NCBI GenBank assembly: GCA_039621445.1 | Contig: CP154954.1 | Span: forward strand, 47,099,847-47,163,846 | Direction of reading: 5' to 3' | DNA from: Euglena gracilis | Lineage: Eukaryota | DNA: 64,000 nucleotides | Shown: one piece after another, positions 24,501 to 43,800 of the stretch | Layout of the letters: each line of letters starts with the position of its first letter | How positions within the stretch are numbered: position 1 is the first letter of the stretch | The notes under the pieces: generated by a model | The model's database searches: none | Seen by the model: the letters and a program-made list of their open reading frames with translations, nothing else | What the model was told of the DNA's origin: nothing | Translations under genes and position numbers: made by a program

Positions 24501-27500
24501 AAAATGCCACTGAAAATCCAAGAAATTTCCAAGAAAAAAAATGTCCGTAAAATTTGAATGTTTCAAAATTTGGTCCCATTTTTTTGACCTGCATTTTTTT
24601 GACCACCCTCCTAAAAACGAACAATTTTCAACCCTAAAAATTTGGAGTTTTTTTGGGGGAAAAATGTATGTATTTTGGGTGTTCATTTTTCAAAACATTT
24701 TCAAAAAAACCCCGCCCTTTTCCTTATTTTTTTGGTTGAAGTGTATGGGGACAGGATTTTTTTTTTTTGCTTAAGGACCGCCCTGGTCAGTTCCATCACC
24801 CCCCCTTCAGGGAAGTTAACGTATCTCCTGAGGTGGCAGGAGCATTGGATTCTTGTGCAACGCGTTTGTTTTCTTTCTGCTTCCCCTTTTCCCTGTGGTG
24901 GGTTGGGGGGAAGAATTGTTGTTATTGTAGTTCAACTGTTACTGGTGTTGTGAGGTTATAAGGTTGGACGGTTTGGGAGAGTGCAACTGCTGCGCAGCAC
25001 TTTTGAACTTCACTGAAAATCAGTCACCCAGGTGCAGGGATGTGTGGGAAGCCTGCGGTGCTGAGGTAGGTGTTAGGAGGAGGGTCCAGACCCCTATCTT
25101 GCATTTTACCGTATCGACACCTTATATTGGGTAAGGTGGTGGGTCCGGACCGCCCTCCAGATGTTGGAAGGGGGTGTCTGGACCCACCCCCACTGCCTTT
25201 GGCAAGTTCCAAAAAATAGCGAAAAAATTTTCTTCCAGCACATACGCCAGAAAATGCAACAAAAAGGTCCCTTTCCTTATTTTCAAGCGTATTGCACATT
25301 TTTTGATGTTTTGGTGTTTTCCACATAAAAAATGAAAACAAGTACAAAGAATATTTTCGTTCTTGGATATTTTTTGAAGAAGGATCAGAGATTTTTTTCA
25401 ACATATTTTGCCTGGTATTGGGTCCTTGACCGTCAACAAAACCAAACAATTCCCCTGCCCTTTACGGTTTCGAGGTAGGAGGGAAGGTCCGAACCCCCCA
25501 GGGCTTCCCATACATCCCTGCCCAAGTGTGAAGGAAAACAAAATTGTGTTTTTTGCAACTTGTTGTTCGTTTCTTTTTTTTGCATTTTGTTTTCTTCTCC
25601 TATTGATTTTCTGTTCTGTTTGCTTCTTTGGATAGTATCAACCCAGTAATTTGGTAAAAGGCGACCTTTGATTTTTGCCAGACGCCTGCTTCGGTTTGGA
25701 GTTGCTGCCAACCCTCCTGCTGCCCCAACAGGGCTTGAGAAGGGCAGGCATCAGGGTGCGGCCCTCCTGGCTCAGTCCCCAGAAACAATTTCGCACAAAC
25801 ACGTTCATGCGCCATCTGTGCCTTGTATTAGTTTTGTGTAGCCTTGTTTTTGGGCCCCCAATTTTGTGCGATCTTTCACCATACGCATACATCACCACAC
25901 GCAAAGTCCATCATCAACGTCTTGCACATTCCCAAAATCAAATTCAAACCCAATGATCTCACGCCTGGAAGTTTTTTTTTGCCTTGAATACCGCCCAAAA
26001 GAATTGCCGTTTCAAAAAAGGAGTCATCAAAACAGGCAATATCATGGAGTGCGGCTCCATGACATTTCCCCTTCCCACCACGGCTTCGCATCCCTGGCCG
26101 GAGCCAACCGCCAAAACTTCGGAGCGGCCAAGCCCCCCCCCCCCCGCCCTAGGCGCTGGTGGAGGGCTCCGTCAAGGCGTTCGCAGACATGCTGCAGGAG
26201 ACGGCCACCACGGTGGTGGACGCCGGCACCGCCGCCCCGGCCGCCGCCAGCGTGCCCGTCGACTCCACCATCAAGTTCTCCCAGTTCTCCAAGGGTGTGC
26301 CGGGGAGGGGGGGGTGACAGGGGGGTCGACACGGGGCGGTGGGACGGTGTCGGCAACGGCACCGGCTGTACGGTGTTGCTGCTCTGTACTGCACTGCACC
26401 CCCGCACGACACTGACGAAGGGGTCCCGGTTCTGGGCATTTTGGGATTTTTTTTTGGATTTCAATGCCATCCAAGGTCCAGCCATCCTGCACAAGGAGAA
26501 AACCAAATTTGCACAATATTATAAATACCTTTTTTTCGGAAGGGCGCTTCCATTTGGAACACTTTGATTTTTGGAATTCCATTTAAATTATGTATTTCAG
26601 GGACAGGGGGCTCTGAATTTCATCTGGGGGGGATGGGGTTCGGGTGATGCACCAGCGCTTATTGCTGTTGTTTTTTTTCGAAGTTTCTATTTTATGAGTT
26701 TTTTCCTTTCATTTTTTCTTCCAGTGCTCCTCAAAGAAAAAACATGACATATTGTCTCCGTCAAATATTTTTTATGCTTTTTGCAAAATGTTTTCAGTGA
26801 AGCTTTTTTTTGAAAAGAAGTTACGTATATCCAAGTCCCCTCTCAAAAAAAAAAGAGCCAAGGGACAGAATTTGTTAGGGGGGAGTCCCAATCAGGGTTT
26901 TTTTTTTAAGTCTTGGACCCTCGGGGAGGGGGGAGGGGTCTGGCCGAGCCCTCCTCCCCCCCAGAGGGGGGTGGGATATACTTTTCGGCACCGAAAGCGC
27001 CAAAATTTTTTAAAAAGGTGCATTTTTTGCATTTTTCACGATTTTTTGGCCTTTTCGCGGGAAAAATGGGTTGGGTCCCTGGTTTTCGGGGAAAATTGTG
27101 TTGGGTTCCCTTGACCCCTCCCTGGGGGGGGCGCCCCCCCCCCCCAGGGGTAGTGGGTTGGTTGGGGGACCCTTCCTCCCCCCCCCCCGGTCTTAAAAAA
27201 ACCCCATACCACTCCTTAATCACAGTGGGGGGGGGTCTGGACCGACCCCGGAGGATTCCCCAGAAGTCAATTTTTTTCTTCCAGACCCCCAAAATGCCCC
27301 AAATGCCCAAAATGGCATTTGGAGTCGAAATGGGGACAGGGATTTTTTTTGCTCCAGCGCTTTGTTCCAGACCAAAAATGTTCCATTTTGGCTGTGTTTG
27401 TTACGGTAGAAGCCACCCCCCTTGACTGGAGGGGTCCAGCCCTTGTATCGAACCCTGGGGGAGTACTTTCATCAGATTTTTTTTGTGATTTGCCCCTTCG

Positions 27501-30500
27501 AAATCAAATGAGTGATCCGTACCGCTAAAGCATCACAGGGTCCACGCGTCCGTTCCATGTGGTCGGGGACCCAACTCCAACGAGCAACCCCACCTCTGGA
27601 TTTGCTTTTGACGACGCTGGCTTCCTTTCCCTGTGTGCTGCAGACAAACACAATCGACTGGAAGAGGAAGATGAGACGGAGGATCCGAGTGCCGCAATGC
27701 TTTCTGGGGTAAGCCCAGAAGCCCGGATCGGTATTGGGAAGGCATGCCCACAGGATTTGCTGCAATCCAGTTTCATGTGCGGATATCGCTGAGCATGGCC
27801 CTGGCCTGGCGAGAAGTTTCACAGCTCAGGGGCCCCTGGGGTCTATCTGGGGGCGGTCTTATATTTGGGAGGGGTAAATTTGGAGTTTGTTGCCCTCCTG
27901 CTGCAGGCTTCTGCTTAAGGGTTCGCAGTACCCCCCCGGGCTGCAGCTCGTCCAATTTTGGCTAGTGGAAATCCTAGTGGACCCCCCTTGGGGGGATCTG
28001 TTAGGACTAGTAGTAGCAGGACTATCCAGGTGGAGAATTTTTCCAGTGACCAGTGCGAAGTGCCGAGTTTTTTTGGACCCCCCAAACTGGCCAAAAAAAA
28101 TCTCATTTTGGTCAGTTTTGGTTGTTTTTTTTTTAGAACTAAATCAGCCAAAAAACCCATCAAAAACCTGATTTCCACCTTGGCGCAGCGCTGGAGGAAT
28201 TTTTTTTCCTATCGGGAGCCCCCAAGGGGGTCTATCAAGTCTATTTTTTTTCCAGTGTCTGTCTAAATGTCCACCCAGTGGACCCCCCCGTCCTTAAGAA
28301 AAGACCCGGCTGGGTGTCAGGCATTTGCCTTGCGGCAGCAGCACAGACCAGCCTTGCTGGAGCAAAGGGAAAGAAGAGCGCCTTCATTTCCCGCCTGGAC
28401 AGGTGTTCTGTTGCCTCCTTTCGCACGCCTGCAAGGCAAGGCAAGGCGCTGTGCTGCAACAATTCTGCATACGCTGGACTCTTGCCACTGTAAGTCAGTC
28501 CTGGCAGCACCCCCTCTGTGTGCCGGGCCGCAGGGTCATCCAGCTGACGGGCTTCTCCGACCCGGTGTATGCGGAGGCCATGGTCACCGTCAACCAGTTC
28601 GACATCTCCCTGGACATCCTCGTCGTCAACCAGTCCTCCCACCCAAGGCATTGCTCAAAGGATATGCAAAGAAGTTGGAATTGCAAGAAGTTGTGAAAAA
28701 TTTATTTCTTGTTTCTCTTGCTCTTTTGGATACCTTGAATCGAGGGGGTGGGTCTGACTGTGAGGCTGAAGGGTGGTGCTCTACATCCAAGTGGAAAAGC
28801 ACTCATGTTGCATGTGCTTTTCCGTGGATTCATTGTCGGTTTTGATGGTTCCTGGACTTCCGCATGTTGTCTGCACATCTACACCCACAACTTGCTGGAC
28901 TGGCTGGAGGCGAAGCAAAGACGTACCCACAAGGGAAATTGTGAGACCCCCCGGGCGGGGAGGGGGTCCAACCCCTTCAGGGAAAAAGGTGCTGGTGCCC
29001 CCACAAAAGATCCTTGGGCAGACTGCGCTGTAACTGTGCATTCTTTGGTAAAAAAAAATGAGAATAGAAACACCGAGTGCCTTTCTTCCAGTTCCCAGGT
29101 AGCTGTTTTTCTGGGGGTTGGACATTTCGACACGCAGCGGTATGATGGGGGAGGGGGTCACCCCCCCCCCCCCAAAGCCTTCCCGACAGCTTTGGGGGTC
29201 CAGCTGACTGATGGGCTGGACCCAAAGGCAAAGAAGCAAATCCAGCTGAGAATTTCCGTAGGAGAAAAAATGCCCCAAAACACACCCCTCCCATCGCCCT
29301 TTATTAACCCTTCACATTTCTGCCGGAAACGTCTGGGCCTTGGCTAGAGCCAGCGAGCTGCAACTTGGACCTGCAGCTTTGTTTTCATTCATGAAAATAA
29401 GTCCAAAGGTGTTCCAACTTATCGCCCACAACTCGTTGGTTGTTCTCATCAAAATCCAATACTTTGTTAAGCGTCATAGCGCAATCTGCTACACAATGGT
29501 GCGCATGGGAGATTTGCTGCAAGAGTGGGTGCTCCATTGGGAGGTTTGCAACTATGCGCTGAATCGTGTTAGTGGGGTGTACGGGGGTATCCCAACGTGG
29601 GGTGTACGGGGGGTGTCCCCTAGGTCTTCCGCATCATTGTCCATGGGTTGAACGGTACCTGCGTTTGCGGGCACCATGCAACGCATTTCTGGATGTCAGG
29701 GCAATGTGGGAAAGGACCCAGTATCAGGTATTGCTGGCAACTGTCCGTAAGGACTTGGGGGGGGAGCGCAGGGGGGAACACCCTTCCCTCGGCTAGTGGA
29801 AAAGGACGCTGGTTTCCTGGATTCCCCTGGGTGGGGGGGGGCAGTGTCCGTTTCACTCCCTCACAGTTTTAACGTTTTTTTGTTTTCCTCTTGTTTTATT
29901 TTTTTGTTTGCATTTTGTGCAGTTTTTATTTTATTATTTTTGAAAACCGATATGTTTCATGCTTGCACTCATTTTTTTCCTTCGATTTTTATCAATTTTT
30001 CACATGTCTTTGGCCCTCCGTATTTGCATTTTTTTGCATCTTTTCTTTCACATGCTTTTCAGGTCATCGCGAAAAAAGGGTCTAAATGTGGCGGAGTTGC
30101 AGCACAGATCCACATGCCTTCTTCATTCCTTCCCTCTGTTCGAATGGGAGGCGGTCTTATTACACATTTGATTCTCATTGCAATTGGTGGGCTTTTGGCC
30201 ACCTGAGGAAGAGTGCCTTGGGATCATTTGCTGCAAAGCCTCACGGTGGAGCTGGCGACCCAAGGGGACCTGAAGCTTTGTGAGCGGCCGGAGACATACA
30301 CGCTGGCCCCCAAGGAGCAGGTCAACATGCGGGTCAACATCAAAGTTTCGTCGACCGACACAGGTGTGATACGTATGAGGAACGTTTTAGAAACTCGAAA
30401 GAAAATTTTGCCCTTGACATTGGGGGGGGCATTCTAACTTGCCAGCGTTGTCTGAGGCACAGTTTGAAACACCTAATGGTAGAGGATGAAGGTTGGACGT

Positions 30501-30988: not shown

Positions 30989-31021
<33 letters not shown>

Positions 31022-31147
31022 GTAAGAGTCTTCCGCTGTCCCAGGAATCATCTTCGGCAACATTGTGTACGACGGCCCCGGTGCAGCTGCGGAGAGGCAG
31101 TGCGTCATCCTCAACGACATCCACATCGACATCATGGATTACATCAG
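1003..31147 (+). CDS. COPB1: Coatomer subunit beta (beta-COP), 23 exons joined, 3'-incomplete in this window
   Basis: Exons 1003-1203, 1370-1605, 7326-7357, 7771-7821, 8973-9004, 9286-9363, 9468-9587, 9661-9842, 10236-10401, 11820-11919, 12817-12929, 15364-15465, 16365-16430, 17813-17890, 18085-18176, 20951-21065, 21676-21810, 26153-26294, 27644-27708, 28347-28402, 28534-28640, 30226-30363, 31045-31147 join with consistent phases into 2510 nt with no stop. Recognisable beta-COP motifs: [75 protein letters not shown]. Confidence 0.96.
1204..1369 (+). other. Nonconventional (euglenid-type) intron, COPB1 intron 1
   Basis: C|AGC-CAGGCT...AGCCTG-GTGTT|A; removal gives VLP-KQDH, aligning without a gap. 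Confidence 0.88.
1370..1605 (+). CDS. COPB1: COPB1 exon 2 (KQDHKLKK...MANLDHR)
   Basis: Strong beta-COP similarity; GT donor at 1606. Confidence 0.95.
2217..2326. repeat. Near-perfect hairpin (about 45-bp stem)
   Basis: caaattgtggctgagcccagatttcagcctgaa...ttcaggctgaaatctgggctcagccacaatttg. Confidence 0.9.
2327..4494. mobile_element. Non-autonomous DNA element with long TIRs and nested inserts
   Basis: tttaaaaacgtgttcagagcccgccaaatgcctgccctgaagttcgtggtcatga is mirrored at 4442-4494; subterminal gacgccgggtt/aaccggcgtc repeats at both ends. Confidence 0.75.
5002..6881. mobile_element. Long-TIR element with a second TIR element (about 5344-6438) nested inside
   Basis: ccggcttcacgcctgaacccg / cgggttcgggcgtgaagccgg; inner arms ccccccaaataatacccc / ggggtattatttgggggg; internal (TGCAATTTTG)n. 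Confidence 0.65.
7326..7357 (+). CDS. COPB1: COPB1 exon 3 ([10 protein letters not shown])
   Basis: Pyrimidine tract plus CAG acceptor; highly conserved beta-COP motif. Confidence 0.93.
7358..7770 (+). other. Nonconventional intron, COPB1 intron 3
   Basis: T|ATG-CAAGGAGTTCC...GGAACTTATTG-ATTTT|G; restores AVL-CLMAVY. Confidence 0.88.
7771..7821 (+). CDS. COPB1: COPB1 exon 4 ([18 protein letters not shown])
   Basis: PDAPE motif; flanked by nonconventional introns. Confidence 0.9.
7822..8972 (+). other. Nonconventional intron, COPB1 intron 4
   Basis: G|AGC-CAGGCCTT...AAGGCTTG-TCCAA|A; restores DAPE-L; flanks TCCAGAGC / TCCAAAGC. Confidence 0.85.
8973..9004 (+). CDS. COPB1: COPB1 exon 5 ([10 protein letters not shown])
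   Basis: 32-nt microexon that fills the gap between DAPE and DVTTKRNSF with no indel; phases fit. Confidence 0.85.
9005..9285 (+). other. Nonconventional intron, COPB1 intron 5
   Basis: C|TGC-CAGGCAGT...ATTGCCTG-CCCCA|G; restores KES-DVTTKR. Confidence 0.8.
9286..9363 (+). CDS. COPB1: COPB1 exon 6 ([13 protein letters not shown]...YLRK)
   Basis: KRNSFLML resembles the conserved KRNAFMML; GT donor at 9364. Confidence 0.92.
9468..9587 (+). CDS. COPB1: COPB1 exon 7
   Basis: tttgcag acceptor; [24 protein letters not shown]. Confidence 0.92.
9588..9660 (+). other. Nonconventional intron (73 nt), COPB1 intron 7
   Basis: C|GAC-TGGGAAGA...TCTTCCCA-GCCCC|A; removal is needed to keep the frame (VIF-NLL). 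Confidence 0.88.
9661..9842 (+). CDS. COPB1: COPB1 exon 8
   Basis: NLLSS...[14 protein letters not shown] donor at 9843. Confidence 0.94.
10236..10401 (+). CDS. COPB1: COPB1 exon 9
   Basis: AG/GT bounded; [20 protein letters not shown]...LKKEV. Confidence 0.94.
11820..11919 (+). CDS. COPB1: COPB1 exon 10
   Basis: AG/GT bounded; [13 protein letters not shown]. Confidence 0.94.
12817..12929 (+). CDS. COPB1: COPB1 exon 11
   Basis: AG/GT bounded; IVPVLSDYL...[10 protein letters not shown]. Confidence 0.93.
14549..14760. repeat. (TACTA)n pentanucleotide microsatellite
   Basis: Direct reading. Confidence 0.95.
15231..15325. mobile_element. hAT-like MITE (CAGGCTTGTGCT family, short form)
   Basis: TIR CAGGCTTGTGCTTA / TAAGCACAAGCATG; flanks ATGGGGTC / ATAGGGTC (7 of 8). 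Confidence 0.8.
15364..15465 (+). CDS. COPB1: COPB1 exon 12
   Basis: AG/GT bounded; LWVLGTYC resembles the conserved LWILGEYC. Confidence 0.93.
15484..15565. repeat. (GCGT)n/(GT)n microsatellite
   Basis: Direct reading. Confidence 0.9.
16365..16430 (+). CDS. COPB1: COPB1 exon 13
   Basis: AG/GT bounded; [18 protein letters not shown]. Confidence 0.88.
17813..17890 (+). CDS. COPB1: COPB1 exon 14 (variable linker)
   Basis: AG/GT bounded, phase 0-0, open; falls in a poorly conserved linker. Confidence 0.78.
18085..18176 (+). CDS. COPB1: COPB1 exon 15
   Basis: AG/GT bounded; KDGTYVT...LPLR. Confidence 0.9.
20951..21065 (+). CDS. COPB1: COPB1 exon 16
   Basis: AG/GT bounded; [15 protein letters not shown]. 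Confidence 0.93.
21676..21810 (+). CDS. COPB1: COPB1 exon 17
   Basis: AG/GT bounded; [13 protein letters not shown]. Confidence 0.92.
21909..22544. mobile_element. hAT-like MITE (CAGGGCAGAACGGGAA family)
   Basis: TIR CAGGGCAGAACGGGAA / TTCCCGTTCGGCCCTG; further ends of the family near 18820-18835 and 20593; TSD hidden by C/G homopolymers. Confidence 0.72.
22584..22864. mobile_element. hAT-like MITE (CAGGCTTGTGCT family)
   Basis: TIR CAGGCTTGTGCT / AGCACAAGCCTG; perfect 8-bp TSD ACCGGGAC; partial copy at about 8595-8804. Confidence 0.9.
23107..23365. mobile_element. hAT-like MITE
   Basis: TIR CAGGGGCTTTTTT / AAAAAAACCCCTG; perfect 8-bp TSD CCCTGGGG. Confidence 0.85.
23551..24785. mobile_element. 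hAT-like non-autonomous element
   Basis: TIR CAGGGCGGTCCATAAG / CTTAAGGACCGCCCTG; perfect 8-bp TSD GTCAGTTC. Confidence 0.9.
26153..26294 (+). CDS. COPB1: COPB1 exon 18
   Basis: AG/GT bounded; AFADML...[10 protein letters not shown]; very GC3-rich. Confidence 0.88.
27644..27708 (+). CDS. COPB1: COPB1 exon 19 (acidic linker)
   Basis: AG/GT bounded; phase 1-0 fits both neighbours. Confidence 0.8.
28347..28402 (+). CDS. COPB1: COPB1 exon 20
   Basis: AG/GT bounded; FISRLDR precedes VIQLTGF; acceptor picked among tandem CAGs by phase. Confidence 0.82.
28534..28640 (+). CDS. COPB1: COPB1 exon 21
   Basis: [15 protein letters not shown]...VVNQSS. Confidence 0.95.
28641..30225 (+). other. Nonconventional intron, COPB1 intron 21
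   Basis: C|ACC-CAAGGCATT...AGTGCCTTG-GGATC|A; restores NQSS-HLLQSL. Confidence 0.9.
30226..30363 (+). CDS. COPB1: COPB1 exon 22
   Basis: [20 protein letters not shown]...[11 protein letters not shown] donor at 30364. Confidence 0.95.
30989..31020. repeat. (CA)n microsatellite
   Basis: Direct reading. Confidence 0.9.
31045..31147 (+). CDS. COPB1: COPB1 exon 23
   Basis: [10 protein letters not shown]...[14 protein letters not shown] donor at 31148. Confidence 0.95.
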
Positions 31148-31239
31148 GTGTCTGTGATATTGTGGGATCGCACCAGGGGGCCCATGGTGCCATGCTGGGA
31201 ATCGGTTTTGTGTGAGGGTTTGGCATACGAAGCAAAGAC

Positions 31240-31632
31240 CAGGCTTTTGCTTAAGGGATTGCAGTACCCCCCCCCCCCCGGGGGGGGGCTGGACTGCAGC
31301 TAGTCCAAATTTGGCTAGTGGGATTTCTAGCAGCAGACCCCCAGGGGGTCTGCTAGCAGGGCTAGCTAGTGGAATTTTTTTCCCGGTGACCGACGTGAAG
31401 CGCCGAAAATTTTTTTGGGACCCCCAAAAATGGCCAAAAATGCCGTTTTTGGCCATTTTTGGGATTTTTTGGAACAAAATCAGCCAAAAACCTGTTAAAA
31501 ACCTCATTTTTCCAGTCCGGGGGACCCCCGGACCCCCCCCCCCCCCCCGGCCTAGCTAGTCCACTTTTTCCAGTGTCTAGCCGATTGGCTAGCCAGTACT
31601 CCCCCCCTGGGGGTCCTTTAAGCAAAAGCCTG
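31240..31632. mobile_element. hAT-like MITE (CAGGCTTTTGCTTAA family)
   Basis: TIR CAGGCTTTTGCTTAA / TTAAGCAAAAGCCTG; flanks GCAAAGAC / AAACAGAC (decayed); related copy at about 27904-28308. Confidence 0.78.
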
Positions 31633-31813
31633 AAACAGACAGTCTGAAAGGAAAAAGGGTGAACGGGATTTCCTTGGTACCCCCTCCCCCCTCTTTGTCG
31701 GGTCCAGTTTAGTTTTGGAAAAATGAAGGATACCCCCTTCAATTCTTTTGTCGAGTATAAACAACATTTGCTCTAAAGTTTGTTTTTTGTTGTTTTTTTT
31801 TGAGCTTTGCCAG

Positions 31814-34800
31814 TTTCACAAACAAGCGTACCAGAAACACTTTAGAGGACCGAAAGGATCACCACGACGCAACTGCTGGCTGGCTCCTTCTCCTTTGATG
31901 GAAAGGTGGCTCCGGAACGATTGACAGAATTTTTTTTTTGGTGTGAGAAGAGTTTCTCGTGGATCCCCCCAGATGGGTTGCTTCCCTAACGTCAACTGGC
32001 ACGATATTAACGTTGGGCCTGCAGGCTATGGTCGGAGGCTGCTGCGGAAAGGGTGTGCTGAGTTTAAAGATTCCCTGCAGGGGGATCCTGCATAATCCTG
32101 CATAGGTCTGTCTTTATAAATTCCTAAAACAGCAAAGAATACCCAACCATAATGGGTTTCAGAAGGACAGGAAAAACAATTTTCTGTTTCGCTTGATTGG
32201 TATTCTGTTAGGTGAGGAAATTGTTTTTCAATCATCCCACTTTTTTCTTGAAAATTTAATCAAAGAATTTTGAAGTTGAATTTTGGTACATCTCAAACCA
32301 ATTTGTGTCTTTGGTATTGAGTGTCAGAGAATTTTTTGGCACCATTTTCACAAAATATTCATCATCCTCATCAGCATTTTCCTGTTTTGAATTATTTTCA
32401 CAATAATCCTTCAGGGTCGATACATTTTCCACCTATTAAAGTTGGCTGAAATGCATTTTGTCAAGCTCCATCTTGTCTGGCAGCGCATTTTTGAAGTGCC
32501 GCTGAAAAGAATGGGCTGATGGTGTTTTTTTTTGATTCACAAAAGGCGACTTGCAAACTCTGAAAAAAAAAGATGTTTACAACCGCCAAAATCAAGCCCT
32601 CACTGGGGCCTAAAACTGACCCCCTCCCCCGGGGGGGGGGGGTGCCTGCTTTGCCAGAAGCGAAGCTAGTGGCGGCAATAAACAGGCAAGAAGCCTCAGT
32701 GCAGCCTAAGGGGGCTTTGGGCAGGCACCACATTGCACAAGGTGCCCCCCCTGGGCTTGACAGAAACGGATCTTTGGCTTTCACATATGCAAAAATGGCC
32801 AGAAATTGCAAAAATGGATCGGATTTGGGCTGGCCAGGGCAAATTTTGGGTCAAAAAACCCGTGTTTTTTTTTACACCCCTGGCAGTTTTTTGGGGCTTT
32901 TTTGGAGTTTCAATGTTTTGATCCCCGGTTCGACTCCCAGTCTGGCCCAGTTCCAGCCCGGGGGACCCCCATGGGGGGATTAGCCAGCAGCCTTATTCCA
33001 GCCAGCCCAAATTTTCCAGCTTCTGACCTGGACCCCCCTCCCCCTCCCCTCATTAAGCAATGCCCTGGTCTCAGGCCCAACCCCCATACATTCTGGGAGC
33101 ATAATTGGGAAAACGGTTGCGTCATCTTTTGCTTCCTTGTGGTTTTGTGTGGCGTTTGTAATTTTGGGAACTTTGAAAATTTTCAAAAAAAAACTTGTTG
33201 GAAAAGCTCTAAGGTTGAACCTGCCTCTGGGGTAGGGGTTTTCTTAAGCTGTAGGGGGCTTTGCTTCCTGGGGGGGTCCAGTCAGCCATCACTTTTTTTT
33301 TTTCAAGCCAGCACCTCCCAGCCAGGCTGTGGACCCCCCCCCCAGGGGTCCGCTGAAACAAAGTTTGGGCCAGCCCAGCAAAGCCAGCCTGGCAGAAAAT
33401 TTTTGAAGAAAGGGGGCAAAAAAAAATGGACAAAAAATGGCATTTTTGGGTGCTTTTTGGGGTTTCACTGCTGAAAAATGCCAACCCAGCTGTATTTCAG
33501 CTTTTTCGGGTGTTCTTGGGTACCCACCGGGTCCAGCTCCCAGCCGGCCGGACCCACCCCCCACTCACCACTCACCTGACAACTGGGCCAGAAGCGAAGT
33601 TAGCGCCGGCCATGTACAGAAAAGAAGCCTGAGTGCAACTAAGGGAGCCCAGCCAGCACCTTTTTCCAGCCGGCCCGCGGACCCCCCCCCCCCCCGGATC
33701 ACAAAAGCAGGTTGGTTGTAATTACTCAAGGAACATGGTTCTTCTCTCTTCTCTTTTGTTTCAGGTCTCAGGTTTCCGAAGGCTTGGAGAAAGGCCAGTT
33801 CACCTGCAGCACAGCGTACTCAAAGTCGAAGCCGCAGCAAGAGCCGCAGTAGAAGCAAGAGCCGAAGCAATTGCCGCAGCCGCAGCAAAGGCAGCCACTC
33901 CACGCGCAGCCGGTGTGTACTCCCCCGAAATATAGAACCAGTTCTAACCCTCGGAGGGGTGTTCCAAATTTGGTCAAGAATTTTGTCGATCCGAAGGTTA
34001 CCATTTTCCCCTCACCATGTGCAATAATTTAGACCATTTTTGGAGAGTATTTTGGTTGCTTTGGTTGGAATTGGTGGACGAAATTTATCAGGCAGCATTT
34101 ATTCAAAAAAATTGTCTCTGAAATTCCGAACCTCAAATTTTTTGGTGCTTTTTTATTCTCCGTTTCAAAACCCCCATTTCAGGGAGTGAAGTTCAAATAT
34201 TTGGTCGCTAAATCAAGGACCCCAGGAGGGTTCTAAACCACGCCCCCCCCCCACTTCCAACACCCCCCCACTTACTAACCCCCCCCCCCCACTTACTAAC
34301 CCCCCCCCGGCCGACCAACCAACGGGACTTATAAACCCCCCCCTTCGGGGCAGGAAAATGAAAGCCGCCGGGGCCGATTTTTTTTGGCCTCAAACCACCC
34401 AAAAACTGATTTTTGGCCCTTTTTTTGAGATCGACCATCATCAAAAATGCCATTTTTGACCAAATTTACCAAAAATTGCCATTTTGGGGGGGTTTCGGGG
34501 TCATTTTTGGGGTTCGGATTTTCACCAACAATTCCGGGACTTATAAACCCCCCCACTTACTAACCTCCCCCTTCGGCCGAGACCAAAAACCGGATCCTAC
34601 TAACCCCGGGGGTTTATAAGTGGGGGGTTTATATTTGGGAGGGGGGGTTCAATCTGTCTTTGTTCCTTGCACACAGGCATAATGATTTTTGGGCAATTTT
34701 GAGGCAATTTTTCATTTTTTTAAAGGTTTTTCAGGATTTTTTTTAAATTCATTTTTAATTTTTTAAAAATTTTAAGGCGTCTATTTTCCATGGGACATCA

Positions 34801-37800
34801 AAGAGCTATCCGGGCATCGAACCAACGTTGGTCCAGGCTGAAAATGAAAAGTCCAAAAACACATTTATTGGGTGGATGCACAATGTTCAAGGGATGCCAA
34901 AAACCATCTTTGTTCCCGGAGTTGGCTGTTCTTTATTTTATGACTTATTTTTACTAAAAAAAAAGTCAAGGTTTTCAAGGTTTTTAAGGCTTTTAAGCGC
35001 CTTAAGAAATTATTAGGCCTGCTTGCACCCCCCCCCCCGCGCACCATCCACAAAATGGTGCGAAATGATGAATTAAGGAAATACCGTCTCTTTTCTGCCC
35101 TTCCCCCCCTTTTTTCAAGCCACAATTTGTGTGGGTGCACAGCTTTAAATATCAGCAAACAGCATTTTGCAGGCAGTCCAGGCCCCATTGCTGCCACAGA
35201 GGCAGCCGCAGCGCCAGCCGCAGCAACAGCCGCCGCAAGGGCCCCAAGCAGGGATTTTTTTTTTTAAAGTTTGGGAGGAGGGGTCCATTGGACCCCCCCC
35301 CCAGGGGGGGGTGGGATGTCACGGGAGGTAGGTTCGTGGGAGGTAGGTGCCGCGGCCGGCCGGCCGTCCAACCAAAACATGGGGTTGGTTGGGCCGCGCC
35401 CGACCGCGACCCAACCATGGCCATATTTTGCTGTCAGAATTCCGATTTGGTTGGGCCCCAATCAAATTGCAAAAGGTTATCACAAAACAAAAAGATTTTA
35501 TGACGTTATTGAAGAAAATAGGGTTAGGGTTTTCCTTTTTGTGACTTCTTTTTATTTCCTTTCAAAATCCCCACAGGTTACTTAACTTAAATTGGGCACT
35601 TATACCCCCCCCCCCTGGCTAGGGCTTAGGGGGTTTTTTTTGTCACCACCCATTGATTGGGGAACCATTGTCAGAGGTTTTTTTAAAGGCTTTTCAGGCC
35701 AAGCATTTATTTTTGGGTTTGTCCCATGGTTTGTTGCCCAAAAGTTTACCAGGCCCCTCAATGTGTCCCCCATGTGGAAACAAATGAAAAACCAATCTTT
35801 TTCCCACTTTGGCTGTTTTTTTGTTTTTGATGTGGACTTTAGGGTTTTTTAAGGCTTTTTTAAAATTTTTAGTCCCCCCCCCGCTTCCCCCTTGGTGGTC
35901 GATGATACCCAAAAGGATACCCAGGGATGACTCTCACTTTTCCCCCCTTTTTTTTCCAGGTGTGGTTTGAAGATGCTAAATTTAGCAACAGCATTTTACT
36001 TGCAGTCCAGGCTGCTTGCCACAACCCAGCGCCAGCCGCAGCAACGCACCCCCAAGCAGGATTTTTTTTTAAAAATTTTGGGGTCTTTTGAACCCCCCCC
36101 CCCCCCAATGTCACGGGAGGTAGGTTCTTCGTCGGCGAGTCCCCCCCACAGTGGGGCCCCCCGGCCCGAGCCCCCAACCGGCGCTTTTTTGGTCTGGGGC
36201 CCCAATCAAACTTCACAAAATTTTATGACATTTTTGACATTTTGAAGGTTAGGGTTCCATGCAAACAGTTCAAACCTTCTCACTCAACTTCTGTATATTG
36301 GACTCTACAGGGTACTCAGCTAACCCAAAGAGCCACCCAATTAGGGTTAAAAACATGGGGGGACCTGAGCGGTGCGGAAGGCGCCGAGCGAGGGTCCCCC
36401 ATGTGTATTAACCCTAGTTGGGCGGCCTTCTGGGTTCGCTTAGTACCCTGTAGGAGCCAATTTAACCGCCATTGTGCGATGCAGTTCGCTGGGTCTGTTG
36501 TGGTTGGGTGGCCGCGGTCCAACCAAACCGAATTTCATGATTTCAGCATCGGAAATGGTTGGCCCTCAGCCCAACCAAGATTTTTTTGGGTTGGGCCGCG
36601 GCCGGCTGCGGTCCAACCAAAGCAGCAAAATGGTTGAGCGGCGCGACCCTACCTCCTACGCACCTACGTCCGCTTCCCCACCCCCCCCAGGGGAGTTCCT
36701 CCAAAGGGCTTGGTGGGTTTTGGCCACTTTTTGGCCTTTTTTGGCGCGAAGCGAATTTTTTTTGACCCCAGAATTGGCCCCCCAAAAGTGAGTCCCCGGA
36801 CCCCTCCCCCCAGGGGGGGGGTAGGGGTACCTTCTGGGTTGGTATGGGGGACCTCCCCCCGGTCTTAAAACAGTCCCTGGCCCCCAAGGCCGAGGGGGCC
36901 AGGGAGAAGCGGTCCAGCAGCCCCAGCCAGGCGAGCGAGCCGCAGCAGAAGAAGGCTCGCAGGTGTGCTTTTTTTTTCTGGATAACTGCTTGCTTTTGAG
37001 ATTTTGTTAAGTTGGCATAGGTTCATGGTGCTGGCAAATACCTTCTGCGATGCATTGGAGTAAGACAGGCATCTATTGTGGTTTTGCTGTCATGAACCAT
37101 CACTGGTTCTGCGGTATACTATTTTTTGTTGGGACCCATTTTCATCTGCAGTCCAAGGAAGAAATTACTGCAAATGATTCTGGGTGAAAATATCATGGGA
37201 ACAATATTTTGGGAGTATTTTGATTGTGAATTTTTTTGGGTAAAATGAATTTTTCATCCTGTGCCAAATCTTTTTCAGACCACATTGCAGCCAGAAAACC
37301 CTTTTCCCCAAAGTGTGGTGAGCAAACTGCTCAAAAATGAGTCACTCGCAAATATCATACACCGATGATGGCTGCTTTTGATGACTGGCCTGGTATGGCA
37401 TTTGAGGATTTCATTCGCCTTGGCTCAAGGAGGTGTTGAAAGGTGCAGAGGGAAGAAAGGCGGCGCCCTGCCGGGGGGGGGGGGGGTCTTTGTGAGGCCC
37501 TCCAGGGCCGGGCGGGGGGGGTGGGGGTAGGGCCTGTTGCCAAAAGTGCCTGGGCACTCGGGCAAGGCACTTCTGGCCAGAAACGCCCATTTTTGGGCAC
37601 TTTTTGGCACATGACCAGCAGGGGGGGATGGTGCCTGCCTGCCCAGGCATTCCAGGGCACTTGGTCAAATTCAGCCTGGTGAGGGTGTTCCCTGGATTTA
37701 GGATTGTGGTCGAAGTGAGGCTTTTTTCCTTGGACTTGAAATTGGGTGGGGGTCAAATATTATGGGAGGAAGTCACATCGAAAACTTTGATTTTCACACC

Positions 37801-40800
37801 CAAATCTATTTTTCTGGCGCTTGTTTTTTGTGCAAGTTGGAAATTGGAAAGTTGTTTGTTAGGGGAGAGGGGAGCCGACATACCTCCCCTCTCCCCCTCT
37901 TTGGCACCCTGCCTGCCCCAGGGCGGACTCCCAGGAGCGGGAGGCGGCCAAGCGGAAAGCCGCCCCGGGGCCCCACAAGGACCCGGTGCCCCGGAAGCTG
38001 TCCACCGCGACCCGCCGCGAGGCGCCGGCCCACCCGCCGCCCGGCTGGGAGCCCCCGCCGCCCCTGTGGGGCCCCCACCGGGGCGGCCCCCCCACCAAGG
38101 CCGCAGCCCAGCGGGGAAGGGAGAGGCAGGGCGACGTAAACGAGCGGTCCCACCCCGCCCGTGCATCTCCTTGCCTGGTGGGGGAAACTTGCACCCCCCG
38201 CAGATTGGCCAAAGGAGGCCGGATGAGAGCTGTGGCGGCGGAAAATTTTTCGACCATTGTTTTGCGTGTTTCCCCTCAAAATAGTCTTTTTGGAGGATTC
38301 CTTTTTTTCCTCGATTTCTTCTTGTTTGGGAAAAGACCACATGAAGAGCTTTTGCGTTCTCTTGTGTTCCCTCTTAATGCAGAGTTTTGGATCCAGGCTT
38401 CTTTTAAGGAAGGTCCCCCCCTTGGGTGGTGTGTGCAGGCAGGGGGGGGTATTTTTTTTAATAATCCCAGGGGTGTACCTTGTATGCAGGGGTGCCTGAC
38501 CATAGCAGGCACCGCTGGTCCAGACTGGGGTTGACCCAGGTAAAGTCGTTTTCGGGCTTACCCACTGCCCACCCCAAACCTGACCCTTCGGGGGATCAAA
38601 GTGCCTGCTTGGACCTGAAATATCCACCTAATTTCATGGGTTTCCTATTTTTGATGGCAAGGGATGACGATGTGGGTGCGAAGGTGGATGCCAAGCGAAG
38701 AATTGTTTGGGAGATGTCAAGTGGATGCACGGATCCGATGCACCAAGAGGGCGGAAGCCTCCGCCTCCTCCTCCGCCCCCCGAGGAAGATTGGGGACAGA
38801 CTTCAGCATTTGAAACGGAGGCCAAGGATACCTTTTGAAAACAGACTTCTTTTTAGCCCCCCCCCCCCCCAGGTCACCAATTGGAAAAAATTTTCTGCTT
38901 TCTGCCAAAAGCATGAAATGTGTTCCAAAGGTGCTTGGTTTGAGATATCCACAATGTCCTCCCACCAAATCAAGGTTCAAACGGTTCTGCAACACCGATT
39001 TTTTGAAAATATCACAAAAAAGGCAATTTTGCTGGAATCCCCCCCAAGGTCCCAATGTGGGGGATGGCAGAGTGGGTGCATGGAGGGGTTTCCCTCTATT
39101 TTCGTTGCACAGCCCCAATTTTTTTTGAACTCCAAATTGCCCCCCCCCCAAAGTGGGTGCTCCCCCTGAGAGTCCCCCTCTAAGGGGTGGGGTGGATGGG
39201 TCCGTACCCCCCAGATCCTGAAAAACCTCTGGTGCGAGGGGTGCAGTTTTTTGGCACGGTGTTTCCTATTTGCATGAATAGTGGTACAGAGCTTTGACAT
39301 GGAAGGGGTTGTGTTTTGGGGCAGGTGGAACATGAAAACAATTCGAACCATGTTTTTTTCGGACGGGGCCTAGCTTGGACCATGTATGTGCTGGCACCAT
39401 AGCAAAACGAGCAGATTTGGTCAAAGCCTGACACAATAGGCACAACTGTCATTTTGGCCATCCTGATGGGTTTTGCGGCGTTTCTTTTTTTGACGTTCTC
39501 CAGCGGCGTTTCTTTTTTGGGCATCTCCAGCGGCAGAAGTCTGTTGACCGACGACGTGCAACCCGACGCTGCCGCGAAGCACCGGAGGCCCAGCCATCGT
39601 CACGAGCAGCCGGCGGCTTCCCGTGGAAAGTGGGATGGCCCGGTGTCCTTTGCGGAGGAGCCCGCTGAGTGGGATGACCCTCCACCCCGGGAACGTGCGC
39701 CAAGGCCAGCACTCCACCCTGCTGTGTTCTTGAGACCACCGAATGAGCGTTAGTTAGTGAGTAGATTTGTGTGCCTATCATTAATTAGGGGGAGATATTA
39801 TTTATTTTGGGGTCCGTTGTTGCCCTCCCCCTTGGTGAGAAAGTGGGACTGCGCGTGTGCTTGTTTCTGACATTTCTCTTCGTCACTGCCCACATAGCGG
39901 ATATCTCCCAAAGAATGATCCCTCTGCTGCATACTGGTGAAGACAAACAAAAATGGCAGAAAAATCACCGGGTACATCCAAAAAAGGTGCATAGAAAAAT
40001 TGATGAATTGAGCCTGTATGAATTTCAAAAATTGTGGTCATTGCACAAAAAGTTACAAAAAATATTGGCCTGGAGAAATTGGCGAAAGAAATTTTGCAGT
40101 CATTTTTTGAGGTTGATAATCTAGCCCAACATCCCCCCAACCCCCCCCCCTGGGCTCTGACTTCGGTGTTCAAATCATTATTATTTAGGGGGAAACACTC
40201 AAGGGGTAGGATGTTGGTGAAGGTTTGAATTTCCAATCTTAGCAAAGCCCTCCACACCTTCCTGTTTTTTTTTCTCCCCTTTTCAGGGTGCCGATATACA
40301 TGTGGACTGAGGAGGATAGAGCTGAACACTGAAAATACAAAATGCCCAGACATGGAAATTGAAAACGGGCGATATTTCTGCCAAAAACCAGTGGGGACCC
40401 CCAGGGAATGATAGCAGCGAATAGCACACAAGAATCATGTCTTTGGAGTTGGGTCTGGGCTGCACAGGCCTCACACAATGCGCGTTGCAAGGGACCCTTT
40501 GGCACCACACCGGCAACCCTCCGTTCCGGCCATCACACGGGGAGTGCTGCCCGCAGCGGCCACGGCAGAGACAGGAGGCGGACCCTCCGCGCCGCCACGC
40601 CGACCACCGCAGCCAATGGGCCGAGGATCCCGACGAGGCTTTGTTTTCGGGCGGCCGCCGGTGGCCCTGGCAGGCCGGGGGGGGTCCAAAGCGCCCACCG
40701 TGTGAGGCACGCCACCCCAAGTGGTGGATGGGTGTCCCCCCAAGGGGGGGTCAAGCAAAGCCTGCTGGAGAGGCATACCCCGTCCCCACCGGGGGCCAGT

Positions 40801-43800
40801 ACGACCGCTACCCAGTCCCCTCCCCCCCGCGTCGGGGCCCCCTCTCCCCCCTGCGGAGGCCCACCGGGCCGCCCCCCGCCCCCCCCTCCGTCGTCGCGGC
40901 GGGATGCCGGGATGGCGCATGACCAGGGCTGAATGAGAACCCCAGAAACCTCATGGGTTTTGGTGAGTGGGGGGGGGGGGGTAGGTAGGGGTCGCCCCCC
41001 CTCAAACAGGCTTTCTCATGCAGCCCTGCGCCCGACCCCTACTCCTGGTCGCCTCCCCACCAGCCTGCCCGCAGAACCTCAACCCAGGACCCATACATGA
41101 GGCGTGCTGTGCATGCTCATTCTACTGGGAGGGGCAAATGTATATTTTTGTGTATTTCTGTTTGCCTTTTTCGATTTTGGCAAAATGTGGGGGGGTTGCG
41201 ATTTTTCGCTTCCCCCCACCGATTTCCTAATTTTTCCTGGGAATTTTTTTTGATTTGGAAAGATTGCATATTTCGGTCCAATCTTTTCTCTGAAGGATTT
41301 TCCATGCAACTTACGTTTGTTCTGTTTCCATTATGCCCCCTCTTGTGGACAGCCTGACAAAAAGCCATTGGTGAAGACACACCGGCTGCAGGCTTCTTTT
41401 TAAGCCCCCCCCCCCCCCCCGGGTGTCCCCCCCACCCACCCAGCCTGGCGCAGGACCCCCTGGACCCCCTGGCAGGACAGGGACTGAGGGCATCCCCAAA
41501 AAATTTTCGGGGCTTCGCACTGAAACCCTACCTGGGCCTCCGCCTGGGACTTCCTCCCTGGGGGGGAGGTCCCTGGACCCCCCCCCCCAGGGGGTCTTCT
41601 GACTTAAAAAAAAAAGCCTGATGCGCCGGTGCCTGGCCCGGGGTCGAGCCATTCACCCACCCACACACCCACCCACCCACCAGGCTGTAAGGCATGCCCC
41701 CCAACCCCCCCCAACCCAGGGAGTGGATCAAAGCGCCGGAAAAATTTTGGCCGTTGCATTTTCGGGCTTTTTTTTAAAAAAATCGGCCAAAATATGTGAA
41801 AAACTGGGGGGGAAGATATGGAATTTTTTGGTTCCGGGGGGGGGGGGGGGCGGGTCGGATCTGGGTCCCAGGAACTCCTGGGGGTGCCCACTAGGAAATA
41901 GTGACCAGTCGCCAGGAAGGAAGCCCCCAGAGGCTTGAGGACCAGGGGGGGCTCGGGTTTTTGGGAACAATTTTGGGTCAAAGCTTTTTTCGGTTTGTTC
42001 TTGAAATATTTGAAAACCCCCAGGACAGGGTGCTGGGTGTACAGGTTGCCATCTGGGCTTTCACGTACCTTGACTTCGCACAGAGCGTAGAGTTGTTTTT
42101 TTTTTGACTGTGGGGGGTTATGAAGAGCCAGAAAACAAAAGAAAACTGTTGGAATGAGATAAATGCAATTTCCAGCATTTTTTTTTGCAGAAAAAAGGTG
42201 ATAAGTGTCAACAGCACTGAAATCACATTTTTTTCTCTCTGCTGTTGAAAAAAGGATGATTAGCCTTTTCAAAGAAAGTGGATTCTTATGTGCTCCCAAA
42301 AAAATGAATGAGATTGGCGGGACAAAAATGCAGGAAATGACATGACCCTATCTTTTAAGGGTCGCCCCTCCCATGAAAAGAAAAACCCGTATCAGAGATT
42401 TTTTTAAAGTTTGGTTATCTGGGGCAGGGGTCCGCCCCCCCCCCCCCACGAGGGGTGGAGCGGGCCCAGTCGAGTGAAAATGAAGTTGGGGCAGCCTGCC
42501 ACAGCCCAGGGGTCTGGCTGGCCGGCCGGAAAAAGGGGCTAGCTGGACCCCCCCCCCCTTTCTTTGAGTGAGCCAGCCGGCTGCCGGGCTGGACCTGGCT
42601 GGAACCCAAAAGCCAGCAAAAGAACACAAATCCAGCTGTGTTGGGCTTTTTTTGGTCACATTGACCGTTTCCCCCTCTTTTCCTCTTCTCGGTGGACCTT
42701 AAAAATTCCGTGACCCAGTTCCCCCAACGGAAGGAGAGGGTGGCTGATGCATCCGCAGAGAGATTGACGACGTCTTACCCAGTGGATTATTTATCTGCAC
42801 AGGGAGTATGAGAGACAGTTGCCGCAACCACAACGAGAGCGCCATGGCCGGAGTTTGGGAGGTGTGTCGCCATGTCAAGAACACAGTTCAAAATAAAAAG
42901 TGGAAATGTGGAAAATGGAAAAAGTGGAAATGTGGAAAAGTAAAAAAGTGGAAAAAGTGGAAAAATACAAAGTGGAGCCCCAGTTTGTATTGGTGTCCAA
43001 TTGTATTGGTGTTCAGCGGATCCAAATATAAACCATGGAAAAGCCCTCCTGCTATGAATTCTCTTGAACCGCATTGTAGTGTCACTTTGCTTTGCGGTAG
43101 CAAAATAATGGAAAATGGAAGGCAAAAAGGGTGCCAGACCAGAGGGGTTGCTGCCAGTGCTGTGTGAGAAGCTTTGCACACCCACCCCAGCAAGTCCTTT
43201 TTTATCCAGCTCCCAATCCAGGACCAAAGATCAGAAAGAATTTGTGAGAATTTTGAAGTGCCTCGAACCACAAGAAAGAAGCCCGCGTCTTTATGGTGTG
43301 TTTTCTGTCCATGACCGACGCTGGGGTTCCCCTCTCAGGAGAGCACAGTCCTCCACACGTCAGCCGCCGGAGCCCCACTCCCCCACCGAAACGGGCCTAT
43401 GCCCCGCCCCCGCCGCCGGACGAGTACGCCGACTACCGGCGGCCGGAGCGGGAACGGCGGTGGGAGCGCCGCGACCTGGACAGCGAGCAGTACTGGGAGC
43501 AGCGGAGGGAGGAGGGCCGGGGGGAGCAGCGGGACGGCCGGGGCCGGCAGCCCGACTGGCGATGGGGTCCGGAGCCATGGAATGGCCGGCCCTATGCCCA
43601 GGCAGCAACTCCGGAGCTCCGACGCGTGAATTCTTGGTCTCGGCGTTGGGAATCCCTGTCATGCAAAGGTCCATTACAGTCTTGGACTGCCAACGGCTTA
43701 TTTCATTCTTCTGGTTGGCAGTTTTATTGGATTTATTGGCACAACAATTTTTTTCATAAATAAGTGTGCTGTGATTTTCAAGTGCCTGAAAATTCAAGCA

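Follow-up and report, generated by a model that had tools for sequence, protein, structure and literature searches.

A probable nonconventional intron of transposon origin interrupting a candidate RS-rich gene in a euglenid

How can an exon be read continuously when a transposon-like element interrupts it and no GT-AG pair is available at the break? This question is raised by a locus at positions 35241 to 36888 of the window analyzed here (the whole stretch of DNA, 64,000 nucleotides or 64 kb, with position 1 at its first letter). At this locus, a 1631-bp element flanked by a short direct repeat interrupts an exon-like block of a candidate arginine/serine-rich (RS-rich) gene on the forward (+) strand. 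The original prediction, made from the letters of the sequence, described an apparently young, complete element with terminal inverted repeats (TIRs) and an intact target site duplication (TSD) that acts as an intron. The analysis partly confirmed this observation and partly supported its interpretation. On balance, sequence comparison indicates that the stretch is probably a euglenid nonconventional (NC) intron of transposon origin, most likely spanning positions 35246 to 36885, that has been rearranged since insertion. The coordinates of all features are collected in Table 1.

Analysis of the interrupted region revealed a direct repeat with one copy (GCCCCAAG) on the 5' side of the element and one copy (GCCCCCAAG) on the 3' side. 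The element starts with CAGGGATTTT (in its longer form, CAGGGATTTTTTTTTTT) and ends with AAAACAGTCCCTG. Its perfect TIR comprises only 6 nt (CAGGGA at one end, TCCCTG at the other), and 12 of 16 positions pair when the TIR is extended. The direct repeats are TSD-like; the TSD had been described as intact, and its copies are 8 and 9 nt long. The interrupted exon, as originally drawn, lies between an AG at 35171-35172 and a GT at 36963-36964, and joining of its halves yielded the reading SRRKGP/KAEGAREKRSSS within the joined reading GSRSASRSNSRRKGP/KAEGAREKRSSSPSQASEPQQKKAR (slashes mark junctions or cuts). The repeat copies, the limits of the element, the positions of the AG and the GT, and the continuous reading across the break thus all stood as originally described. 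If the stretch was retained in the mRNA, the frame would enter the element and reach a stop about 84 codons later. Because the direct repeat flanks the element, there are eight equivalent cut positions, all of which lead to an identical mRNA. None of the eight offers a GT-AG or GC-AG pair, in agreement with the claimed absence of GT-AG at the break, and all nine nearby GC...AG combinations alter the length by a number that is not a multiple of three. At the borders and among the nearby combinations tested, no in-frame GT/GC-AG pair able to remove the 1631-bp stretch was found. All of these results are consistent with a TIR/TSD insertion that interrupts an exon and would need removal by a route other than GT-AG, for which a mechanism is known in euglenids.

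The NC splicing code of Euglena was derived from knock-in mutagenesis and reads 5'-N3-CDG...CH'G-N5-6/R, with R as the first exon base; NC splicing also requires that the bases following CAG pair with those preceding CTG (Nomura et al., PNAS 2025, PMC12501133). Compliance with the strict code is 61.2% in E. agilis; the preferred 3' spacer is 5 nt long, and in a variant with 1 additional bp the transcript was reduced by 30 to 40% (PMC12501133). The consensus reported for E. gracilis is CCAGG at positions +3 to +7 and CCTG at positions -9 to -6 (Gao et al. 2024, PMC11170887). Noncanonical borders, pairing ends, and, frequently, short direct repeats have been described for euglenid NC introns in general (PMC3935182, PMC4770533, PMC11170887, PMC11282704). 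For the NC introns of tubA, the excised intron has been reported to occur as a circular RNA.

Comparison of the stretch with this code revealed the N3 spacer AAG in front of a CAG at 35249-35251 and a CTG at 36877-36879 followed by the N6 spacer GCCCCC. Given the 6-nt spacer, the first base of the downstream exon is a purine (A, 36886), which places the predicted cut at 35245/36886; with a 5-nt spacer, the exon would begin with C and the mRNA would be one base longer. The predicted junctions run through both repeat copies. The first 5 nt of the 5' copy are exonic and its last 3 nt form the N3 spacer, and in the 3' copy GCCCCC forms the N6 spacer and AAG is exonic. The mRNA junction is predicted to read GGGCCCC/AAGGCCGAG, and a retained form would read from the exon into CAGGGATTT. 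The additional C of the 3' copy had been ascribed to homopolymer noise. This assumption is not needed: the code permits a spacer of 5 to 6 nt, the 6-nt form gives an in-frame mRNA, and this mRNA does not depend on whether the C is real; therefore, the additional C need not be noise. Positions 35246 to 36885 combine the features by which an NC intron is recognized, namely, a euglenid window, no GT/GC-AG, CDG and CH'G motifs with their spacers, a purine after the 3' junction, and pairing of the ends.

The pairing of the ends was compared with that of the introns of the neighboring coatomer-beta gene (COPB1). The joined 10-nt and 20-nt ends of 35246-36885 fold at -7.5 and -11.6 kcal/mol, respectively. 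The corresponding means are -9.4 and -15.6 kcal/mol for the seven NC introns of the coatomer-beta gene and -2.0 and -6.3 kcal/mol for its 15 conventional introns. The 20-nt value was matched by 1 of 500 shuffles. The joined ends form a run of eight pairs and then a run of four. When the entire 1640-nt stretch is folded, the structure of minimum energy joins the 3' end to bases +4 to +11 and +13 to +16, and three bases stay unpaired at the 5' end and six at the 3' end. In its end pairing, the stretch resembles the NC introns of the window and lies away from the conventional ones.

Removal by the ordinary spliceosome was weighed with the help of splice site scores from a position weight matrix built from 15 sites (training donors, 3.0 to 12.7; leave-one-out acceptors, 1.5 to 15.4) and codon-usage scores trained on the coatomer-beta exons. 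The spliceosome would have to use a cryptic donor, GAG/GTAGGT at 35327/35328, together with the AG at 36888/36889, so that 79 nt of the element became exonic. The scores of this donor (8.0) and of this acceptor (2.6) lie within the ranges given above, and GGGAGGTAGG is present in both 5'-end copies and, inverted, near the 3' end. However, the additional 79 nt shift the frame, upon which the codon-usage scores of the downstream blocks E2b and E3 drop to 2.2 and -26.1; the retained piece would hold runs of T11, C10, and G8; and introns with both conventional and NC boundary motifs are rare (0.8%) (PMC12501133). We consider this explanation very unlikely. As a separate observation, the motif GGGAG/GTAGGT is found at 35320-35349 and 36112-36127 and, inverted, at 36645-36672. 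It matches the local 5' splice sites (matrix score, 8.0) and, lying about 75 nt inside the 5' end of the element, could act as a cryptic donor in either orientation.

The introners of Micromonas, Aureococcus, dinoflagellates, and others (PMC11282704) are a related case, in which an exonic DNA transposon becomes an intron and the duplication helps to define the cuts. The spliceosome excises introners at GT/GC-AG sites or at variants that it tolerates, whereas the predicted signal of the present stretch is the paired CAG and CTG ends. No in-frame GY-AG was found at its borders, and the sole plausible cryptic pair (35327/36889) shifts the frame. A dinoflagellate or algal spliceosomal introner using GC-AG at 35241/36888 was also considered and rejected, since the host is a euglenid, the conventional introns nearby are GT-AG introns, and 8 nt too many would be removed.

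The assignment of the window to the euglenids was obtained from the coatomer-beta gene. Protein-guided spliced alignment placed residues 1 to 829 in 23 exons by comparison with P0001, a 945-residue coatomer beta that carries a GGOE01 accession and shares 96% identity with the open reading frame (ORF) used for the search. The product is identical to P0001 at 790 of 829 residues (per-exon counts summed) and contains no frameshift, and Pfam analysis detected coatomer-beta C-terminal domains in two + strand ORFs. The GGOE01 prefix belongs to Euglena longa transcripts (bioRxiv 10.1101/573709). This degree of identity to an E. longa transcript product therefore marks the window as euglenid; by sequence, its source is a very close relative of E. 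longa among the euglenids.

Refinement of the junctions against P0001 revealed that GT-AG is possible for 15 of the 22 coatomer-beta introns and impossible for seven. The seven NC introns have short inverted repeats inside their ends, e.g., CCAGGC...GCCTGG and CTGGGAAGA...TCTTCCCAG, and a border ambiguity of 1 to 8 bases. The strict published code describes two of them. Two further introns fit by eye, with a G-U wobble (CAG with TTG) or a 4-nt variant (CAAG with CTTG), and the 73-nt intron at 9587-9660 shows CTG...CAG with a 3' spacer of merely about 3 nt. In the two strict-code introns, 1 of 8 flank bases matches, compared to a nearly intact repeat around 35246-36885; this difference suggests that the latter was gained comparatively recently.

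Like the known NC introns of Euglena, the stretch has no GT-AG, carries CAG at +4 to +6 and, ahead of a purine, CTG with a 6-nt spacer, has pairing ends, can be slid along short direct repeats, and is located in a candidate nuclear gene of a euglenid in which conventional introns occur as well. It differs from them in its unusually long and nearly intact direct repeat (8 versus 9 nt), its 6-nt spacer, its large size, and the internal duplicate of its own 5' boundary, and its excision is predicted from the sequence. NC intron 4 of gapC from E. agilis ACOI 323 likewise has 8-nt direct repeats at its junctions and has been read as a recent gain (Milanowski et al. 2016, PMC4770533). There, presence and absence of the intron were seen among strains, whereas a single allele is known here. 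Double-strand-break repair was favored for gapC (PMC4770533), whereas transposition is suggested at the present locus by free copies that have 8-bp duplications.

These free copies emerged from a scan of the whole window for all CAG...CTG pairs 60 to 3000 nt apart with identical 8-nt flanks. Seven pairs were found, three of which have TIRs that pass a threshold of 9 of 12 matching positions, each of them with 11 or more. The four offset controls yielded 0, 0, 1, and 2 pairs, none with a TIR of at least 9 of 12. A looser scan (101 pairs with T-rich or A-rich ends) gave three hits versus one in 303 control comparisons and added the element at 34674-35021. The pattern exceeds chance. The elements starting at 22584, 23107, 23551, and 34674 are all located within conventional introns; a duplication was also looked for around the second copy of the 23107 family, at 26893-27206, and was not found. 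Within the 64-kb window, the ends of the 35249-36879 element align with the copies at 23107, 26893, and 41620 (- strand). With the copies at 23107 and 26893, it shares a pattern of CAGGG, a T-run, AAG, G/C-rich homopolymer blocks, and GGTCTTAAAA...CCCTG. The likeness to these two MITEs (miniature transposable elements with inverted repeats), which had been pointed out before, is real.

Two further observations concern the free elements themselves. Those at 22584, 23107, and 23551 are packed in a single 4.3-kb conventional intron (21811-26152). Moreover, those at 22584 and 23107 (+ strand) satisfy the NC code on their own, with a purine after a 5-nt spacer, and could be nested NC introns within a conventional intron.

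The direct repeat might also have arisen as a footprint of double-strand-break repair without any transposition. This origin has been offered for the gapC intron of E. agilis, an NC intron with 8-nt direct repeats (PMC4770533). In the present window, however, the ends of the element align with other copies, and three independent elements with the same kind of ends are flanked by perfect 8-bp duplications of differing sequence, which is a signature of transposition. We therefore regard a repair origin as extremely improbable here.

With regard to the type of transposon, hAT elements combine short terminal repeats with duplications of 8 bp (PMC3942097). Nonautonomous MITEs of the hAT superfamily are similar to the elements of the window in several respects: 8-bp duplications are present in three free copies (8 of 8 positions) and in one more at 7 of 8 positions, the TIRs are short, coding capacity is absent, and several copies lie in or near genes. 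A difference is that the elements here have no known autonomous partner and that Pfam scans detected no transposase in the 64-kb window. Since such an enzyme is missing from the window and members of the P and Mutator superfamilies can also give 8- to 9-bp duplications, any assignment to a superfamily is tentative. We take the CAGGG ends to resemble the terminus of maize Ac/Ds and the hAT end motif YARNG.

The interior of the 1631-bp element, which is five to six times as long as the 259-bp free family copy, is not that of a simple insertion. Self-comparison and relaxed alignments revealed a diverged tandem duplicate inside the intron, composed of the upstream intron tail, a pseudo-exon (about 36006-36053), an AAG-CAG boundary (36054-36059), and the 5' part of the element. 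The copied region takes in the 5' half of the exon and, from the element, its first ~280 nt, with a duplication period of about 0.75 to 0.9 kb. Three colinear blocks match: 34899-34943 with 35787-35830 (score of 23, compared to 17 for the best of 100 shuffles), 35094-35335 with 35932-36127 (67% identity, 20% gaps, E=1e-19), and 35453-35531 with 36197-36256. The pseudo-exon carries deletions that leave it 25 nt shorter than the version starting at 35173 and thus out of frame, and the better acceptor is missing from it. Use of the inner boundary as a donor (36053/36886) would fit the code and was rejected for this decayed state of the pseudo-exon. With a diverged tandem duplication in its interior, the element is not clean, complete, or evidently young; the perfect TIR of only 6 nt and the repeat copies of 8 and 9 nt likewise leave the description as complete and young unconfirmed. 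The transposon-derived body is, judging by these alignments, composite and not a single intact MITE.

Such an interior might in part be an assembly artifact, with the tandem duplicate and the additional C produced by long-read noise or a mis-join and a true locus that holds a simpler element of about 0.8 kb. The best DNA runs contain only 0.55 to 0.59 of the 31-mers sampled from 31001-41000, the introns are rich in long homopolymers, and the last 116 residues of coatomer beta are missing from the window. On the other hand, the duplicate copies are 67% identical and differ by many substitutions and by deletions of several bases, much more than homopolymer error would produce; translation of the coatomer-beta exons is clean (790 of 829 residues, no frameshift); and shallow runs can also explain the low share of words. 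An artifact appears very unlikely, and the locus is taken below as an NC intron with a rearranged interior.

The exon-like blocks around the intron (E1, E2a, E2b, and E3) bear on whether there is a gene to be spliced. The phase across all four blocks is kept only on removal of the element plus 8 nt, and the best codon-usage frames of E2b and E3 are mutually consistent. The bounding splice sites named in the original prediction were of unequal quality: the GT donor at 36963 is strong (12.8), and the AG acceptor at 35172 is present and weak (-6.7). An in-phase acceptor with an exon start at 35200 scored 7.3. We consider it rather likely that the RS-rich blocks are real exons.

Several findings weigh against the interpretation as an NC intron in an expressed gene. 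The spacer of 35246-36885 is 6 nt and not the preferred 5 nt, and other helices replace the end helix in the minimum-energy fold once the sequence is extended by 20 nt of exon at both ends. In its score, the acceptor at 35172 does not stand out from random AGs (61.5% of the AGs in the window reach or exceed it), and the donor assumed for E3 is poor (-3.8). On the coatomer-trained codon usage, the RS frames reach only -22.6 in E1 and -8.4 in E2a, and the GC-rich exon-like blocks are open in all three frames. Comparison of E3 with longer proteins (126 to 2000 residues) gave 71 candidates, none of them significant; comparison of E1 with longer proteins gave 1678 candidates and no homologue; and a HMMER search with E3 against 1.84 billion representatives gave 0 hits. 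Among 118 + strand ORFs from 20 to 42.5 kb, only coatomer-beta domains reached the Pfam cut-off, and no domain was detected in the RS-rich gene; two weak matches below the cut-off were disregarded. The interior duplication of ~67% identity argues against a simple insertion and sits oddly with the nearly intact repeat.

Some of these findings would be expected if the transposon lay in noncoding or dead DNA and no splicing occurred, the RS-rich blocks being a pseudogene or chance AG...GT GC-rich blocks in a long coatomer-beta intron. The absence of homologues of E1 and E3 in three protein searches and of Pfam domains, the three open frames, the negative RS frames, and the weak acceptor at 35172 are all in line with this explanation. 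Coatomer-beta residues 830 to 945 gave spurious short matches only in the whole window on either strand, and the last of the coatomer-beta exons to be mapped has a good GT donor at its end (31147/31148); the RS-rich blocks could therefore lie inside a coatomer-beta intron. Against dead DNA, the scores of the E2b donor and the E1 acceptor are among the highest in the range covered by real sites, codon usage is positive for E2b and E3 with frames that agree over their shared intron, the blocks contain none of the homopolymer-rich repeat debris with which the introns around them are filled, and the phase over the four blocks demands the exact loss of the element plus 8 nt. Dead DNA thus seems unlikely, and an NC intron in a real gene is preferred.

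Two side observations concern these genes. The missing C terminus of coatomer beta may reflect a next intron of >33 kb, a truncated copy, or a broken assembly. At 39476-39530 (+ strand), before the RS-rich gene's last exon-like block, a tandem acceptor-like unit (GCGGCGTTTCTTTTTT...CTCCAG, twice) provides alternative AGs 27 nt apart.

Table 1. Positions of the predicted intron, its flanks and interior, related elements, and neighboring genes in the 64-kb window
Feature	Position	Strand	Description
Predicted NC intron, 1640 nt	35246-36885	+	AAG-CAG...CTG-GCCCCC, then exon A; exact code fit; terminal pairing
5' direct-repeat copy	35241-35248	+	8 nt
3' direct-repeat copy	36880-36888	+	9 nt; one C more than the 5' copy
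Element body between the repeats	35249-36879	+	1631 bp; CAGGGA...TCCCTG ends
Diverged tandem duplicate inside the intron	35787-36256	+	Self-comparison, relaxed alignments
Subterminal inverted repeat, 5' arm, long and imperfect	35299-35416	+	68% over 118 nt
Subterminal inverted repeat, 3' arm	36589-36693	+	Partner of 35299-35416
Internal 171-nt hairpin	36294-36464		72-nt arms, 76% complementary; holds CAGGGTAC...GTACCCTG
E1, exon-like, RS-rich frame	33765-33912	+	AG acceptor, 11.0; donor CCG/GTGTGTA, 7.6
E2a, exon half	35173 (weak acceptor) or 35200 (better, same phase) to 35245	+	Ends at the 5' cut of the NC code
E2b, exon half, KAEGAREKRSSSPSQASEPQQKKAR	36886-36962	+	Strong donor CAG/GTGTGCT at 36962/36963, 12.8; best codon-usage frame, +17.7
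E3, exon-like, in phase with E2b	37922-38135	+	Codon usage, +20.2; acceptor, 7.2; donor end uncertain, -3.8
Element with CAGG...CCTG ends	22584-22864	+	12/12 TIR; perfect 8-bp duplication ACCGGGAC
Free MITE family copy, 259 bp	23107-23365	+	Perfect 8-bp duplication CCCTGGGG; inside a conventional coatomer-beta intron
1235-bp element	23551-24785	+	11/12 TIR CAGGGCGGTCC; perfect 8-bp duplication GTCAGTTC
Second copy of the 23107 family	26893-27206	+	In the next conventional intron; 3' terminus degenerate
348-bp element, CAGGC...GCCTG ends	34674-35021	+	7/8 duplication; conventional intron just upstream of E2a
Coatomer-beta (COPB1) exons, 23	1003-31148	+	Protein-guided spliced alignment to P0001
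Non-GT-AG coatomer-beta introns	1204-1369, 7355-7769, 7822-8973, 9005-9285	+	Junction refinement
Non-GT-AG coatomer-beta introns, continued	9587-9660, ~27685-28345, ~28641-30225	+	Junction refinement

Elsewhere in the window, two overlapping ORFs in different frames at 61836-62648 (- strand) match RVT_1 with 24.8 and 24.5 bits (gathering threshold, 29.6). By sequence, this region looks like a degraded, frameshifted retroelement; it is surrounded by long ORFs without Pfam matches at 58 to 64 kb. At 51162-51300 (+ strand), there is a long simple repeat of the dinucleotide type, one frame of which translates to (RV)n. Searches of Rfam with 34800-41000 (E<=0.1) gave no match, and neither the 22-nt exon string nor the MITE-end pattern had a match in metagenome contigs.

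The following history would account for the predicted intron. A nonautonomous DNA transposon with CAGG...CCTG ends may have entered the exon and created an 8-bp target duplication, a hAT-like geometry. In the simplest version, an element of about 0.8 kb would have been inserted, a tandem duplication over its 5' boundary would have followed, and the unused copy would have decayed. According to the published Euglena code, the CAG at +4 to +6 and the bases next to it would pair with the bases up to the CTG, and this pairing would draw both junctions together. The NC machinery, probably not the U1/U2 spliceosome, would cut 3 nt before the CAG and 6 nt past the CTG, ahead of the purine. In this way, the element and one repeat's worth of flank would be removed, and the reading RRKGP/KAEGAREK would be restored.

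With element ends of CAG...CTG and cuts at 3 and 5 nt, NC splicing would remove an element together with one target duplication and so give back the mRNA as it was before the insertion. We tentatively propose, with somewhat more doubt than conviction, that the spacers of the NC code (3 nt before CAG plus 5 nt after CTG, i.e., 8 nt) are the footprint of the 8-bp TSD of one transposon group. This geometry agrees with the 8-nt direct repeats of the recently gained gapC intron of E. agilis (PMC4770533). The argument from 3+5=8 and a hAT-like duplication was not found in the literature searched, which comprised parts of papers without supplements. The general hypothesis that NC introns stem from MITEs was first printed in 2014 and was repeated in 2024 and 2025 (PMC3935182, PMC11282704, PMC12501133), so that the link between MITE and intron, stressed in the original prediction, was already a published hypothesis for Euglena. 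In the Discussion of PMC12501133, the origin of NC introns is called "unclear," with MITE-like transposons as a hypothesis.

As a single locus, the stretch illustrates known biology and supports the known idea of a transposon origin; it is not a discovery. NC introns make up 71.8% of the introns in E. agilis (PMC12501133). If the proposal is true, NC splicing would be a precise excision at the RNA level, and NC introns would be exonic insertions of elements with CAGG...CCTG ends. The window would then display both states, with free copies in conventional introns and one code-fitting copy that interrupts an exon. The locus provides a concrete test case, i.e., a code-compliant candidate NC intron with a near-intact 8-nt duplication and ends that match free copies kilobases away. 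If such pairs are common genome-wide, the question of the origin of NC introns could be settled, and the fixed 3- and 5-nt spacers would gain a mechanistic reason.

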